From an uncultured bacterium (GTDB lineage: Bacteria > Hydrogenedentota > Hydrogenedentia > Hydrogenedentales > JAEUWI01), in NCBI GenBank assembly GCA_963977445.1, contig CAXBPH010000069.1, positions 1 through 28,171 of the forward strand: DNA of 28,171 nucleotides, in the 5' to 3' direction. The translations under genes were made by a program, and so were the position numbers. The notes beneath the pieces were generated by a model. It ran no database searches, was not told the DNA's origin, and saw only the letters and a list, made by a program, of their open reading frames with translations. The stretch's first letter is position 1, and each line of letters begins with the position of its first letter. Shown piece by piece: positions 244 through 5,449 of this stretch.

Positions 244-1782
244 TCATGTCAGGCGGGCCAGGAGCATGGTAAGGTCGTCCATCTGGTCGCCACACTCGTG
301 TTCCTTTACTTGTTTCAATACCGAATCCAGGACGGACTCAACCGGAGAGCCTTGGTGTTCGCTTAGAATATGAACAACCCGCTCCATGCCAAACATTTTC
401 CCGTTCTGGTCAGGCGCTTCCGTCAGACCGTCCGTATAGAGAAGCAGCATGTCACCCGCAAGGAGCTGAATGGTCTCGTCTTCGAATAGGACATCATCGG
501 ATAGCCCCAGCGGCAATCCAGACTTGCGATTGAGGGAAATCGGCTCGACCGTGGACTTTCGCACTAGGACCGGCGGGTTGTGGCCCGCCAGGCTATAGGT
601 GAGCGTGCGGGTGTGGAGATCCAATCGGGCGAGGAACAAGGTCACGAAGCGGCATGATTCACCTAGATCTTCGTAGAGTTGCGTGTTCACCTGAAGGAGA
701 ATTCGGGCAGGGCTGAAGCCTTGTCGGGCGAGCGTCCGGACGGCACTGGCACATTCTGTAATATGAATTGCCGCAGGCAGCCCCTTGTTGGTAGCGTCTC
801 CGATGGCGATGTATATCTCCCTGTCGTTAACCACCGCCGCATCGTAGAAGTCGCCGCCCACCTCCCGGGCCGGGAGACTCAGTGCGGACAGCTCAAGGCC
901 CTCCACGTCCGGCAACTTTTTGGGCAAGAGTGACTGCTGGAGTTGCGACGCAATGCGGAATTCGCTCTCCAAATGCTCTCGCCGCTTCGCTTCAGTCTCT
1001 ACGTTCTTCATGTAACGCTGCAACGAAGACGCCATCTGGTTAAAGGCTTCGGCTATCTGACCGAATTCATCCTGGAGGCCCGCCTCGATGCGATACGCCA
1101 GTTTTCCGCCACCGATTCGATTCACCGCCTCATGGAGCGCGCGAAGGGGTTCTGTGAGATGCCGGCTTAGGCGGGTCCCAATCAATACGGCCAGAATGCC
1201 CAGCAATCCCGCGAGAGAAACGACGTACACGACCGTCATCGTTTCAAGGTGCCGGGCGTCGTCCATAGAGTAGTGAAGAAAAACCGCAATCGATGTTGAG
1301 TCGGTATGAGAGACGAAGGGGACTCCCACCCATATACCTCGATTTGTGCGAACCGATACATGAGACACCGCTTCGCCGGACAGCAGCCTGATGGCGCCTT
1401 CTGAAAGACGGGCCCCATCTCCGGCGTTCACGCTCATGGATGCACGGTTGAAGTCGGAGATGAGCGCTCCCGTCTCGCCAAATAGAAATGCCCGATCACC
1501 CGTCAATGCGCGGGAATTCAATAGAAAGGTTTGTTTCAGTGAATCTTTCCCGCTGGTTCCGTCTACACCGTGTGCGCTCACCTGTTGGTCCGCCATAGTC
1601 TGCATCTGGCGCAGGAAGCGTCCCGATACCAAGGTGGAGTCTACCGCCATTTCCTCGAAATGCGCGCGGACGGTCCTCACGGCAGTACCGAGAACTGCTA
1701 CGGAGAAGAATAAAAGGCTCCCGGTGGACAACAAAACGATATTCCACGTTAGACGTGCACGAAAGGTAGTACTTTTGGCCAT
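244..1782 (-). CDS. Membrane-anchored PP2C (SpoIIE/RsbU-type) Ser/Thr phosphatase with extracytoplasmic sensor and HAMP domain
   Basis: Two TM segments flank a sensor region, followed by HAMP (PLRALHEAVNRIGGG...DEFGQIAEAFNQM) and PP2C motifs (VGGDFYD, IGDATNKG, AGH, YTDGLTE, DDLT). Start set at the ATG at 1782, which has GGAGG just upstream. Confidence 0.93.
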   Translation of the reverse strand: MAKSTTFRARLTWNIVLLSTGSLLFFSVAVLGTAVRTVRAHFEEMAVDSTLVSGRFLRQMQTMADQQVSAHGVDGTSGKDSLKQTFLLNSRALTGDRAFLFGETGALISDFNRASMSVNAGDGARLSEGAIRLLSGEAVSHVSVRTNRGIWVGVPFVSHTDSTSIAVFLHYSMDDARHLETMTVVYVVSLAGLLGILAVLIGTRLSRHLTEPLRALHEAVNRIGGGKLAYRIEAGLQDEFGQIAEAFNQMASSLQRYMKNVETEAKRREHLESEFRIASQLQQSLLPKKLPDVEGLELSALSLPAREVGGDFYDAAVVNDREIYIAIGDATNKGLPAAIHITECASAVRTLARQGFSPARILLQVNTQLYEDLGESCRFVTLFLARLDLHTRTLTYSLAGHNPPVLVRKSTVEPISLNRKSGLPLGLSDDVLFEDETIQLLAGDMLLLYTDGLTEAPDQNGKMFGMERVVHILSEHQGSPVESVLDSVLKQVKEHECGDQMDDLTMLLARLT

Positions 1783-1800
1783 GAAGCCTCCCATAGCAGT

Positions 1801-1816
1801 TGCAAGATTAACGCCA
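1801..1816 (-). promoter_or_regulatory. Putative sigma-54 (-24/-12) promoter for the PP2C gene
   Basis: Minus strand reads TGGCGTTAATCTTGCA, with GG and GC at the canonical spacing. The predicted start site (~1790) abuts the SD, which lowers confidence. Confidence 0.55.
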
Positions 1817-1934
1817 TACTATCCCGAAAGGAATAATCGCCTTGCTTCGGTCTGGCGAGCGGTAGCCCATGGCGGGTGGAAATTCCGAAAGTCGAAGTCG
1901 TGGCATAGATGCGGTCATTCGATATCAGAGATAC

Positions 1935-2189
1935 CTACGAAGGTCTATTGAGTTCCTTATAGTACTCCACGAGCGCCCGGCGCTCATCAGGCGTTATTTT
2001 TCGTCGCTTCTTCTTTATGGGAAGCTTTTCGGCGGGTTCTGTCGTCATTGGGTTCTGACTCTCAACGTTGTTTTCATGATCGTCACCACCTCGCACAACT
2101 CCAGGCGTGGTAACGCATCCGACCAGCGAACTCGTCGCGACGACGACGAGTGCATAGGCTACGTGTCTTACAATCCATCCAGTACTCAT
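1935..2189 (-). CDS. Small hypothetical lipoprotein (84 aa)
   Basis: Signal peptide with lipobox LVG-C, SD-like AAAGGAAG, a basic C-terminal helix and an upstream sigma-54 motif. Confidence 0.75.
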   Translation of the reverse strand: MSTGWIVRHVAYALVVVATSSLVGCVTTPGVVRGGDDHENNVESQNPMTTEPAEKLPIKKKRRKITPDERRALVEYYKELNRPS

Positions 2190-2249
2190 AGTGGCTTCCT
2201 TTCATTATGGCACGCCGCGCGGTTGTTTGTATCGGCGTACTTTAGAAGA

Positions 2250-2265
2250 AGCACAGTCCGTGCCA
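2250..2265 (-). promoter_or_regulatory. Putative sigma-54 promoter for the 84-aa lipoprotein
   Basis: Minus strand reads TGGCACGGACTGTGCT (perfect TGGCACG, GC at -12), about 60 nt upstream of the ATG at 2189. Confidence 0.75.
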
Positions 2266-2948
2266 ATCCGCTTGAGGTAGGAAAACAGTGGTCATCAGGG
2301 CAACAGCGCCACGCTTCGACATGCCAAAACGAATGTAGAAGGCAAGAGTCTGGACACTGCAATGAGCAATTGCTTAAAACCGTGTGCCGTCCTTTGATGG
2401 TGGCCACCTGCCCAACGCCTGAGTCATCCAGAACGCCTTCATCGTCTAAGGAGAACACGATGCAGTCGACTTTGTGAATTATGCGGCTTAACTATCCCGA
2501 ATAGTGGCTATGGGTAAAAAGTTCGAATACGGCTCTTCGTTCTCCCATGTCGGCGCAGGGTCGTAACGTAGTTCCGTGGGCCACGGGGTAAGCATAACCT
2601 ACGTTAATCGGCCTTGTCGCCCGAAGTCTTTTGGGAAAGCTCCCGACCCGTTGTCGTGATAAAGCAGGATTGCCATGGTGGCCATCAACGCAATGTGACA
2701 ACGGGACCGAAGCGTGTCGTTCTGGGCTGTCTCCCGCCTCTCTTGGCTCTTGGCGTCGCGTCGCAAAGGGGGGTGAACTTTCGAAAACAACGTTTCGGGT
2801 ATACTATCGGAGATTTACTGTTTCGGCGGCCGGCGGCGGTTACCACGGGGTAGCTGAGAAACGTGGCGGCAGTCTGGGCCCGCTACGGCAGGGCCACTCA
2901 GGTTCCAGAGGCTGTAGAAGTCGTTGGGGACAAGGTAGGGAATACAGC

Positions 2949-4058
2949 ATGTCGAGCTCTGTAGAAATTAAGCGCTTCGGTTCCATGATTGGTGGAAGTC
3001 GGCGTATGCGCAAGGTGTTCTCCCGGATTCGCAAAGGGGCTGTCGTCGATATGCCCGTGCTGATCGTTGGGGAAACCGGTTCGGGCAAGGAGTTGGTCGC
3101 GCGGGAGCTTCATCGTCGTAGTACCCGTGCCGGGAAGCCCTTTGTCGCCTTCAACACCGGGGCTATCACGCCAGACCTGGTTGCGAGTGAGCTTTTCGGC
3201 CACAAAAAAGGTGCGTTCACCGGAGCCACCGAAGACAAAGTGGGACGACTCCGTGAGGCCCATGGGGGGACGCTCTTTCTCGACGAAATTGGCACGATGG
3301 AAGCCAAAATGCAGGTTTCTCTGCTTCGTGCACTTGACGAGGGAATGATTCGGCCCCTCGGCGCGAAACAGGATGCACCCATCGACTTTCGTCTGGTGGC
3401 GGCTACCAATGAGAATCTCGAAGCTGCGGTGAGTGATGGTCGTTTTCGAGATGATCTGCTCTATCGTTTACAAGTTCTTTCTATTCACTTACCCCCGTTG
3501 CGGCGACGGTTGGACGATATCCCCATGCTCTGCGCCGATTTTATTCTGGGCATCAACGATGAATACCACTTTGACATCAAGGGAGTCTCTGAGGAGGCGA
3601 TGGCGGTGTTGCAGACTTATGAGTGGCCGGGAAATCTACGTGAGCTTAAAAATGTGCTCGCCCAGGCCACAGTCACCGCGACCAGTGGATACATAAAGGT
3701 GTCCCACTTGCCCGGTCGTATTGTGGGCGCGGTGGGTCTAGGGGGCCTGGCAGGCGACAGCACTTTCGATGGGGATTCGGCGGGAGATTTTAGCGTGGAG
3801 GACAATCAGCCTGTTGCGCCGCAATCGTCAACCGCCCCTGAAGTACCCACGGAGGGTGCGGAGACGCGGCAGGTAGAGGACGGGCTGTTTGTGCCGGTGG
3901 GGACCACGCTTGATGCGGTCCAACGGGCCTATACCTTCAAGACCCTCGAGCACTGCAATAACAACAAGACGCAGGCCGCCAAGTTGTTGAATGTGAGTCG
4001 CAAGGCGCTCTATGACAAGTTGCTTCGTTGGGGTGACGACAAGAACCCGAACCAGTAG
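2949..4058 (+). CDS. Sigma-54-dependent transcriptional activator (bEBP; AAA+ plus Fis-type HTH) lacking an N-terminal regulatory domain
   Basis: Walker A GETGSGKE, GAFTGA loop, Walker B LFLDEIG, FRDDLLYRL, WPGNLREL and C-terminal HTH NKTQAAKLLNVSRKALYDKL. Start taken at the ATG at 2949; the extension to 2631 does not look like a folded domain. Confidence 0.93.
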   Translation: MSSSVEIKRFGSMIGGSRRMRKVFSRIRKGAVVDMPVLIVGETGSGKELVARELHRRSTRAGKPFVAFNTGAITPDLVASELFGHKKGAFTGATEDKVGRLREAHGGTLFLDEIGTMEAKMQVSLLRALDEGMIRPLGAKQDAPIDFRLVAATNENLEAAVSDGRFRDDLLYRLQVLSIHLPPLRRRLDDIPMLCADFILGINDEYHFDIKGVSEEAMAVLQTYEWPGNLRELKNVLAQATVTATSGYIKVSHLPGRIVGAVGLGGLAGDSTFDGDSAGDFSVEDNQPVAPQSSTAPEVPTEGAETRQVEDGLFVPVGTTLDAVQRAYTFKTLEHCNNNKTQAAKLLNVSRKALYDKLLRWGDDKNPNQ

Positions 4059-4151
4059 TGAGTAAGGGGCACTGGCAGTCTGCCGCGATCAGGGGCAGCG
4101 GAGGGAGTACGACAGGGTCTGCCAGTGCCATGATTGGATCACCCGACTGGA

Positions 4152-4331
4152 TTAACGGCTGAGTATGATCCAAACAGCATGAATTATGCCGGGCACATAG
4201 CCACAGAGGGTGAGGAGCAGGTTCAGCCAGAAGTGCAGGCCAATACCTACTTCCAGAAACACCCCCAATGGGGGAATGAAAATGGCTATCAGTAATCGCA
4301 CCAGGTCAAAGGCAGCTTCATCGTTTGGCAT
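4152..4331 (-). CDS. yqaE: YqaE/Pmp3 (UPF0057) family small membrane protein, 59 aa (absent from ORF track)
   Basis: Hand translation: MPNDEAAFDLVRLLIAIFIPPLGVFLEVGIGLHFWLNLLLTLCGYVPGIIHAVWIILSR. It has the family signatures PPLGV and GYxPGIIHA, and an AAGGAG SD. Confidence 0.93.
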   Translation of the reverse strand: MPNDEAAFDLVRLLIAIFIPPLGVFLEVGIGLHFWLNLLLTLCGYVPGIIHAVWIILSR

Positions 4332-4401
4332 GGGTCTACGTCTCCTTGGTTGAGGGCAGGGCCACGGCGGTCTCCTTCCGAGAGAACACGTGTACGAGAC
4401 G

Positions 4402-4575
4402 CTATAAGATTCTTCGACGGCTAACCGTGCCCTGAATCAGAAAGACCAGGAACAGAATAATGAAGATGAAGAACAGTATCTTCGCTATCCCCGCCGAGGC
4501 CGAGGCGATAACACCAAAGCCGAGCAATCCCGCGATGATCGAAACAATGAAGAATACAACAGCCCAGTAGAGCAT
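4402..4575 (-). CDS. ytjA: DUF1328/UPF0391 (YtjA-like) small membrane protein, 57 aa (absent from ORF track)
   Basis: Hand translation: [57 protein letters not shown]. It matches the family pattern MLxWAxxF...[17 protein letters not shown], with an AAAGGA SD. Confidence 0.93.
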
Positions 4576-4633
4576 GGGATTTTCCTTTCTGCATTTCGCC
4601 TTGCCTCCATTGGCGCGGCACCGTGGGGATTAG

Positions 4634-4649
4634 TGCAATACTTGTGCCA
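4634..4649 (-). promoter_or_regulatory. Sigma-54 promoter for the ytjA-yqaE unit
   Basis: Minus strand reads TGGCACAAGTATTGCA, an essentially perfect TGGCAC-N5-TTGCA, about 60 nt upstream of the ATG at 4575. Confidence 0.88.
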
Positions 4650-4801
4650 ATGTACGAAATGCCCCATTCGAGACGGAAACAGCCGTCTATGGGTATTGTG
4701 GCTGTGTAGAAATGGAACTACTCGTATAGAAATTACCCGATCCAAACGACGATTTTGGACCATCTCGGTCGCAGGGCCAAGAATTACGGGAATTCTCGCG
4801 T

Positions 4802-4817
4802 TGGTACGGTCCTTGCA
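4802..4817 (+). promoter_or_regulatory. Sigma-54 promoter for the 185-aa lipoprotein
   Basis: TGGTACGGTCCTTGCA, one mismatch to TGGCACG-N4-TTGCA, about 75 nt upstream of the ATG at 4892. Confidence 0.8.
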
Positions 4818-4891
4818 CCAACGTTGGTATTGAAAGCGTAGAACCCGTGGTCAATTCCGACCCGGGAGGAAAACCAGAAGGAGTTTAAATC

Positions 4892-5449
4892 ATGAAATAC
4901 GGTTATGGTGTAGTCACGATGATTGCGATGGCCGTTTTGGCGGCTGGTTGTAGTAACAAATCTGGTACAGAAGAGGGGGCCCCTGCCTCGGCGGTGGAGG
5001 TCGAGCTCGAGGTCTCGCCGGTGGTGACGACCGAGGAAGCCCCGGTGAAGGAGACCATGAAGGAGAAGGGCCAAAAGGCGGGCGAAGAGCTCGGTGAGCT
5101 GGCTGATGGTGTTAAAGACGAAGTGAAAGACGCAAAGAATGAAGTGAAAGACTTCTTCACCGTAGGCCAGAACTCCGCCCAACATAAATTGAATGAGCGC
5201 CTGGAAGCGTTGGACGAACAAATGGAAGACGTGGACAAATCCCTCGAAGATCTGGGGGACAAGTCGGACGATACGATGAAAGCGACTTGGGTAAAACTGG
5301 AAGCTGATCGGGTGGCGCTTCAGAAGAAGTTTGACGAATTGGCGTCTGCCTCGAAAGACTCTATGGAACAATTGGCGGAAGACATTGGCGATCAGATGGA
5401 AACAATTGGCGAATCCATCAAGGAATTTTCGGAAGACCTTAAGAAATAA
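4892..5449 (+). CDS. Acidic, alpha-helical (LEA/apolipoprotein-like) lipoprotein
   Basis: AAGGAG SD and lipobox LAAG-C. The mature part is D/E/K-rich with amphipathic coiled-coil character. Confidence 0.85.
   Translation: MKYGYGVVTMIAMAVLAAGCSNKSGTEEGAPASAVEVELEVSPVVTTEEAPVKETMKEKGQKAGEELGELADGVKDEVKDAKNEVKDFFTVGQNSAQHKLNERLEALDEQMEDVDKSLEDLGDKSDDTMKATWVKLEADRVALQKKFDELASASKDSMEQLAEDIGDQMETIGESIKEFSEDLKK

Follow-up and report, generated by a model that had tools for sequence, protein, structure and literature searches.

Can sigma-54 and a local activator drive genes of the general stress type in a phylum of uncultured bacteria? The question is raised by a contig of a Hydrogenedentota genome (CAXBPH010000069.1, assembly GCA_963977445.1); the window, i.e. 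the whole stretch of DNA analysed, is 28171 nucleotides long. In its first part (positions 244–5449), four -24/-12 motifs lie around a gene for a sigma-54 enhancer-binding protein. A preliminary description had read five units there as one stress island run by that activator, possibly with feedback through an RsbU-type phosphatase and with sigma-54 in place of RpoS or SigB. In the right half of this region (2949–5449), sigma-54 and an activator devoid of a sensor domain probably govern the local core of one arm of a regulon of the general stress type; a probability of about 0.6 was given to this reading. In the phylum, sigma-54 promoters of such stress-type genes appear to be almost confined to genomes carrying this activator.

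Genomes and promoter scans

The host genome (7.1 Mb, 94% complete; the window is its contig C69) was compared with eight congeners, and the phylum survey covered 126 Hydrogenedentota genomes. Genomes are cited below by G numbers and host contigs by C numbers. Genes were called with our own hexamer coding model and not with a standard caller. A sigma-54 weight matrix was trained on upstream DNA of the host genome, the window's own contig being excluded. It returned 75 forward sites of at least 14 bits genome-wide, against 5–13 in ten spacer-shifted controls. The gene rpoN, whose presence the preliminary description had proposed to check, was found (E 4e-64, 476-aa open frame), as were about 26 sigma-54 activator domains, some 25 of them besides that of the window. 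The sigma-54 regulon was estimated at 75–85 promoters, including those of pilins, flagella, nitrogen, psp and chaperone genes. The rpoN gene itself (C291:1268-2692) is preceded by a 15.6-bit site 20 nt from its start, likely an autorepression site.

Sigma-54 motifs of the window

The four motifs were confirmed at 1801–1816, 2250–2265 and 4634–4649 on the minus strand and at 4802–4817 on the plus strand, all with GG-N10-GC spacing. The matrix gave motifs 1 to 4 scores of 11.7, 19.4, 19.2 and 17.3 bits; three are strong (17–19 bits) and motif 1, on the phosphatase side, is marginal. A consensus of middle stringency matched the window five times, at these four positions and once inside the phosphatase gene (1019–1034, minus strand; 6.4 bits). 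The statement that no comparable intergenic motif lies elsewhere also held: the one site above 12 bits in 5501–28171 (22239, 17.2 bits) is intragenic. Three sites of at least 14 bits fall within about 1.7 kb of intergenic DNA, for which spacer-shifted controls predict 0.05 (P about 2e-5) and the genome's real rate 0.18 (P about 9e-4). A sigma-70-type scan gave 3 sites against 3.1 expected. Pfam agreed with the gene identities proposed earlier (HAMP and SpoIIE, Sigma54_activat and HTH_8, Pmp3, DUF1328).

Motif 3 stands 59 nt before the ATG of the DUF1328-Pmp3 unit; motif 4, divergent from it, precedes a 185-aa lipoprotein gene. Both are conserved in two congeners (G003, G007), and motif 4 was also found before the homologue in G001, G006 and G102. 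The promoters of DUF1328 and of the lipoprotein gene are thus kept in relatives. Scanning the host genome, also suggested earlier, revealed further sites before csbD (on C43, 22.0 bits), a second DUF1328 gene (on C45, 20.1), an MscS gene (20.4), a PRC-barrel gene (18.7) and DUF3309 (16.0), and general-stress marker families are present among the predicted sigma-54 targets.

A sensor-less activator family

The activator gene (2949–4058, plus strand) encodes 369 aa, with an AAA+ domain from residue 13 and a C-terminal helix-turn-helix domain (HTH_8, Pfam). Walker A, GAFTGA, Walker B, R-finger and sensor II motifs are intact and the helix-turn-helix is present. No N-terminal regulatory domain was found, a point not remarked on earlier, and the predicted architecture is that of class Ic activators, i.e. 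AAA+ motifs and a helix-turn-helix with no signal domain. A longer reading of 475 aa from position 2631 was rejected, as it adds no domain and relatives start at the AAA+ domain. A protein search over lengths of 202–646 aa (E ≤ 1e-80) gave 49 matches, none of which had a receiver domain listed.

In a midpoint-rooted FastTree tree of the AAA+ region, 18 family members formed one clade (support 0.93), apart from the PspF of the genome and 30-odd other activators. Identity with PspF was rejected: the TIGR02974 model gave 247 bits, below its cut-off of 444, and the true pspF-pspA locus lies on C188, outside the clade. The family occurs in 21 of the 126 genomes, and protein and profile searches returned the same 21; members scored E ≤ 7e-145, the next match 2.5e-109. 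Five non-carriers checked in full had only ordinary activators. Within the family the C-terminal helix-turn-helix is strongly conserved, and the adjacent genes with sigma-54 sites include PRC-barrel and OsmC genes. No site of at least 10 bits pointing at the activator's own gene was found.

Tandem or second copies of the short activator were seen in G007 (L033 8529-11086), G021, G109 and G124 and recall hetero-oligomeric activator pairs. Two more sensor-less activators of the host genome, C52:21779-22831 and C376:2391-3419, are unrelated to the window family; the C52 gene lies upstream of a gene for polysaccharide export and carries a sigma-54 site of its own.

Activator and promoters across the phylum

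DUF1328 gave 41 matches in 33 genomes, 16 of which are among the 21 activator carriers, and the best locus was tested in 30 of the 33. A site of at least 12 bits within 300 nt was present at 14 of the 30 loci and at none of them in each of five spacer shifts; the background was 108 of 5220 genes. These sites occurred in 13 of 15 carriers versus 1 of 15 non-carriers (p 2e-5), or in 13 of 15 versus 2 of 15 when operon leaders were counted. By genus the figures were 7 of 8 versus 2 of 11 (p 0.005); all these contrasts rest on about 19 genera, and kin are not independent. Of the two carrier misses, one lies on a contig that breaks off at 114 nt, and the other genome has an 18-bit site at a second copy beside the activator. 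Four families are represented in the contrast, which is also seen within genus g61, where G120 and G126 were positive and G119 and G121 negative.

Two other families were split in the same way. CsbD gave 43 matches in 35 genomes; 30 loci were fetched, two were dropped for short upstream DNA, and sites of at least 12 bits were found in 5 of 9 carriers (two more reached 10.6 bits) versus 0 of 19 non-carriers. For Pmp3, only the 9 strong ones of 25 matches were taken, with sites in 4 of 5 carriers versus 0 of 4 non-carriers. The sigma factor itself is widespread: rpoN was found in all 15 non-carrier DUF1328 genomes and in 116 of the 126 genomes. Linkage alone does not explain the association, since the majority of the positive promoters lie away from the activator. 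The local activator family predicts where such sigma-54 sites occur in the phylum, in agreement with the role first proposed for a local activator.

The conserved core and its proposed control

The minus-strand unit of the core consists of the gene for a YtjA/DUF1328 membrane protein (4402–4575, 57 aa; PF07043 E 4e-13, NCBIfam PRK13682 models) and, as second gene, that for a YqaE/Pmp3 proteolipid (4152–4331, 59 aa; PF01679 E 2e-21). The divergent gene (4892–5449, plus strand) encodes a probable helical lipoprotein of 185 aa, YtxH/apolipoprotein-like, for which all Pfam matches were below cut-off and an Atlas feature match of 0.92 to a putative YtxH cluster serves as a lead. The whole core (activator, DUF1328-Pmp3, both divergent promoters and lipoprotein) is kept in two of the eight congeners, G003 and G007, with the same order of DUF1328 and Pmp3; G001 and G006 keep activator, promoter and lipoprotein. 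Homologues of the lipoprotein gene adjoin DUF1328 in G003, G007, G010, G021 and G102, and in the last three this linkage also comes with sigma-54 sites.

From the motifs, their conservation, the intact catalytic motifs and the co-occurrence, all of which are observed, we infer promoter activity, direct activation, the role and sign of a partner and the stress signal, along the following lines. The activator, a PspF/HrpR-like class Ic protein, would be made from a promoter that is not of the sigma-54 type and would bind an enhancer through its conserved helix-turn-helix. ATP-driven opening of the sigma-54 holoenzyme would then take place at the divergent DUF1328-Pmp3 and lipoprotein promoters, and the same protein would act at the remote promoters of csbD, the second DUF1328 gene, DUF3309 and the PRC-barrel gene. 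As it has no sensor domain, activity would be the default state of the activator, and control would have to come from other factors.

A candidate for this control is a stand-alone atypical receiver of 124–150 aa that adjoins the activator in many genomes. It keeps the phospho-acceptor Asp without the usual acidic pocket. The receiver family was found in 13 genomes, all of them activator carriers (13 of 21), and in none of the other 105, by a profile that 9 of the 13, chosen beside the activator, had themselves seeded. The receiver's own sigma-54 site reached at least 12 bits in 8 of 11 scored cases, the remaining three giving 9.6–10.5 bits. Folding of the G022 receiver with its activator scored 0.55, versus 0.00 for the best control, with at least 92% contact agreement between runs and a partner pLDDT (predicted local distance difference test) of at least 81. 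Of 157 solved complexes, 18 passed at 0.60 or less, a range that also held both of the false passes among 215, and the G022 fold may echo remembered NtrC1-type structures. The receiver is the likely partner of the activator, and the modelled fold lends this weak support. In the 13 carriers, control would thus be exerted by a receiver that itself lies behind a sigma-54 site, forming a feedback loop. In the genus of the host genome, control would instead come from the expression level of the activator or from another partner; a receiver partner in the host genome was rejected, the best match being an unrelated double-receiver protein.

The promoter signature beyond the phylum

An exact pattern (sigma-54 core, 40–70 nt, DUF1328-type start) was run on a species-genome collection, its counts carrying no denominator. 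It matched at least 120 stretches of many phyla, of which 80 were examined with their DNA, from Planctomycetota, Acidobacteriota, Thiobacillus, Pseudomonas, Mycetohabitans, Cerasicoccus, Myxococcota, Nitrospirales and others. About one-quarter of the 80 loci are from Thiobacillus and are not independent. Chance would give 1–7 matches, assuming 10,000-60,000 such starts. With one extra spacer base a single match was obtained, an indicative figure only as it came from a metagenome collection, which differs from that of the main search. A called DUF1328-like gene follows the site in 74 of the 80 loci. Among the other genes of these loci, 31 of 448 had sites of at least 14 bits, versus 0–1 in the shifts, and many of these genes are BON, Pmp3 or YtxH-like.

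A conserved locus of Thiobacillus/Hydrogenophilales (L072, L074, L079 and some 17 others) has both DUF1328 and an EF-hand/BON protein gene behind sigma-54 sites. It adjoins a GlrR-like activator and a kinase and offers a cultured model for the wiring.

Alternative readings

Several observations weigh against a stress arm dedicated to the sensor-less activator. Stress genes are a minority of the sigma-54 promoters of the host genome, in which about 25 other activators could each serve the promoters of the core. Four of the nine csbD loci of carriers were under the threshold, and rpoN was not detected in 3 of the 19 non-carrier genomes whose csbD has no site. The non-carriers G010 and G114 have a site before DUF1328, and in G010 the same genes lie beside a kinase and a receiver-type activator; the phylum thus has at least two ways to drive them. 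To the kinship among the roughly 19 genera and the seeding of the receiver profile must be added that a profile search found no member of the receiver family in the host genome or its genus. No clear enhancer element for motifs 3 and 4 appeared in a three-way alignment, no systematic search having been completed. That the core may answer a general or osmotic stress signal is drawn from homology only. A second stress-type cluster with no site before its DUF3309-csbD pair, considered below, points the same way.

The promoters could be real and be driven by another, kinase-controlled receiver-type activator, the short one travelling along with a package of stress genes or serving a few local genes. 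The number of further activators in the host genome is consistent with this, as are the G010 locus and a further Hydrogenedentota locus, where DUF1328 comes with a receiver-type activator that groups with a Pseudomonas neighbour. Beyond the phylum, 28 of the 80 loci have an activator within 3 kb, and the whole called genes among these are mostly of the receiver type. However, sites at unlinked genes, and also those inside a single genus, can be predicted from whether the short family is present, and its helix-turn-helix is strongly conserved; this explanation was judged unlikely.

We give a similarly small chance to the possibility that the wiring is as described and the programme one of envelope, biofilm or development rather than general stress. 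The targets are membrane and periplasmic proteins, PA0567, the homologue of YqaE in Pseudomonas aeruginosa, is part of the sigma-22 envelope stimulon (PMC3372973) and sigma-54 has been argued to control the cell exterior (PMC3162934). The target set as a whole (CsbD, DUF1328, Pmp3, OsmC, PRC and entericidin/YtxH-like neighbours) nevertheless matches the small-protein set of sigma-S.

The proposal that sigma-54 acts instead of RpoS and SigB was not established. In the host genome, at 94% completeness, the best scores for a sigma of the SigB/F/G family were 135 bits (RpoD) and 131 bits (flagellar-operon sigma), for a cut-off of 234, and no true RpoS exceeded the NCBIfam cut-off. Many extracytoplasmic function (ECF) factors were found, together with a group-2-like (RpoS/RpoD-like) sigma of 276 aa (C18:16355-17185, L191), which gave 250 bits with the RpoS model (cut-off 379) and 250 with the RpoD model. 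A group-2-like sigma is present in 113 of the 126 genomes. It meets no NCBIfam cut-off for RpoS, RpoD or RpoH and is a candidate stress or heat-shock sigma. A second stress-type cluster, C42 20740-34391, contains DUF3309, csbD-like and entericidin-like genes, response regulators and two large genes resembling sugar synthases; its DUF3309-csbD pair is not preceded by a sigma-54 site and is found again in many genomes without the short activator. Given this cluster and the group-2-like sigma, sigma-54 probably does not act alone and would run one arm, perhaps alongside a factor of the sigma-70 type or under its control.

The left half of the region

The phosphatase gene (244–1782, minus strand; alternative start 1794) encodes a membrane sensor of 512 aa with two transmembrane segments, HAMP and PP2C/SpoIIE domains (Pfam) and the metal-binding Asp motifs. 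In the four activator-carrying congeners it had no match at E ≤ 1e-45. Full-length relatives were found in G005 (61%, the closest), which has neither activator nor DUF1328, and in G020 and G103. In G103 the gene is surrounded by CusB-like, YHS and cation-efflux (CDF) genes and a receiver-type activator with orthologues on host contig C70. The G020 gene adjoins MerR and MerC, and the G005 gene stands opposite a gene orthologous to the first one on C70. Sites precede two of the three relatives (19.1 bits in G020, 12.9 in G103; none of at least 9 bits in G005). In the window, the -12 C of motif 1 is 19 nt from the likely ATG, below the minimum of 20 for all 85 sites of at least 14 bits, so that the transcription start would fall in the ribosome-binding site. 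Motif 1 may therefore be a real, decaying promoter of a metal module that perhaps continues on C70.

Motif 2 precedes an orphan open reading frame for a putative 84-aa lipoprotein (1935–2189, minus strand) with a lipobox at residues 22–25. It belongs to no Pfam family, was not called by the coding model, had no relatives in the genome or the examined loci, and its Atlas matches were unnamed lipoprotein-like clusters. The DNA of 1783–2948 had no match in the eight congeners, none of which conserves motif 2. The promoter block formed by motif 2 and its upstream DNA (2222–2376, minus strand) has a 77% identical duplicate within the same genome, just downstream of copA-copB on C200. The copy retains motif 2 and shares a 15-nt inverted repeat (2359–2373), 106–107 nt upstream, a candidate enhancer that precedes only 3 of 190 intergenic sites.

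Phosphatase, 84-aa reading frame and motifs 1 and 2 therefore most likely belong to a copper/heavy-metal sigma-54 module, to judge from gene context. They do not travel with the core, and neither the single island of five units nor the phosphatase feedback could be upheld. The phosphatase does carry the PP2C domain of a SigB-type switch, and the host genome has 7 SpoIIE and 9 STAS genes, one STAS gene with a 20-bit site, and three strong RsbW-like matches. No STAS or anti-sigma gene is linked to the phosphatase in the window, and on C70 a STAS gene was seen with no linked anti-sigma. For all that the four motifs lie within 3 kb of the activator and that SigB and true RpoS scored below cut-off, a single island with partner-switch feedback replacing RpoS/SigB is very doubtful in view of the absence of the phosphatase from the core of congeners, its metal-gene neighbours, the duplicate behind copA-copB and the widespread group-2-like sigma.

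Positions 1-14000 of C70 (L285) carry at least seven intergenic sigma-54 sites around the STAS gene and a YHS/TRASH protein gene, with a receiver-type activator, its kinase and CusB/CusA-like efflux genes, and may adjoin the left end of the window. A direct join was rejected: the ends do not overlap and share only a short repeat, adjacency being deduced from G005 only. The short repeat at 1–33 of the window also occurs at the ends or inside at least seven further contigs and is the probable cause of the assembly break. A strong hairpin with T-runs on both sides (53–87) is a probable terminator after the phosphatase gene. Elsewhere in the host genome, related short peptides of 45–72 aa lie behind strong sigma-54 sites (C171:13244, C2:46477, C193:6587, C4:9495).

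Comparison with known systems

In textbook accounts, factors of the sigma-70 family (RpoS, SigB, EcfG) carry out the general stress response. With a sigma-54 route, if true, the response would become switch-like and gated by ATP, and the control of CsbD, YtjA, YqaE and BON-type proteins in lineages lacking RpoS, SigB and EcfG would be explained. We tentatively propose that sigma-54 with dedicated activators is a fourth widespread general-stress architecture (Planctomycetota, Acidobacteriota, Myxococcota, some Beta-/Gammaproteobacteria and others), of which Hydrogenedentota would use a split form, a self-induced receiver binding the ATPase in trans. Separation of the receiver from the AAA+ domain would be a further way to control an activator. 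The system lends itself to tests in Escherichia coli, as it comprises one defined activator family, a pair of divergent promoters packed into 170 bp and a candidate partner acting in trans; genetic access is offered by cultured Thiobacillus, Pseudomonas and Cerasicoccus, which show the same promoter signature. The novel elements are the family of sensor-less activators, the way its presence predicts the promoters, and its likely receiver partner. No description of sigma-54 control of DUF1328, CsbD or Pmp3, or of the activator family, was found in the literature available to us; supplements of RpoN chromatin immunoprecipitation and AlgB transcriptome studies lay outside that search and could bear on novelty in Pseudomonas. 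A term search of the Hydrogenedentota stress paper PMC10866078 found no passage on rpoS or general stress.

The target families are those of the RpoS small stress proteins of Salmonella and E. coli (ytjA, yqaE, yjbJ/CsbD, ecnB), and ytjA, yqaE and yjbJ are sigma-S-controlled in Salmonella (PMC5437024). In the host genome, by contrast, they lie behind -24/-12 promoters that need an ATP-driven activator, and no RpoS was found over the NCBIfam cut-off. Regulation of PA0567 within the sigma-22 stimulon has been called 'more complex' (PMC3372973). In Desulfovibrio vulgaris, the regulon of the sigma-54 activator DVU3305 is listed as 'general stress response, transmembrane transport' (PMC4641369), a stress label as here; DVU3305 is a two-component regulator of two local operons and is likened to our system by description, not by sequence.

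Partner switching in Bacillus subtilis runs through RsbU, RsbV, RsbW and SigB. The window phosphatase resembles RsbU in its PP2C/SpoIIE domain, STAS and RsbW-like genes being encoded elsewhere in the genome. It differs in that a membrane HAMP sensor takes the place of the RsbT-binding domain. SigB was not found in the genome, no STAS or kinase gene is adjacent in the window, and relatives of the phosphatase have a metal-gene context. Two Pseudomonas loci show DUF1328 behind a sigma-54 site beside an activator, as in the window, but with a receiver-type activator and a kinase. The system compared here is the AlgB-KinB locus with the adjoining PA5482-PA5481 operon, in which PA5482 is the DUF1328 gene. 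No function or sigma factor is given for PA5482-PA5481 in the available part of PMC4981712.

Class Ic sigma-54 activators without signal domain are known, i.e. PspF, HrpR/HrpS and LafK (PMC3162934). The window family shares with them the reduction to AAA+ and helix-turn-helix domains, the intact GAFTGA motif, a partner gene behind a sigma-54 site and the tandem or second copies. PspF and HrpR/HrpS are controlled by the trans-acting inhibitors PspA and HrpV. In the window family, unlike in that class, the candidate partner is a receiver-fold protein and the predicted targets are small proteins of the stress type.

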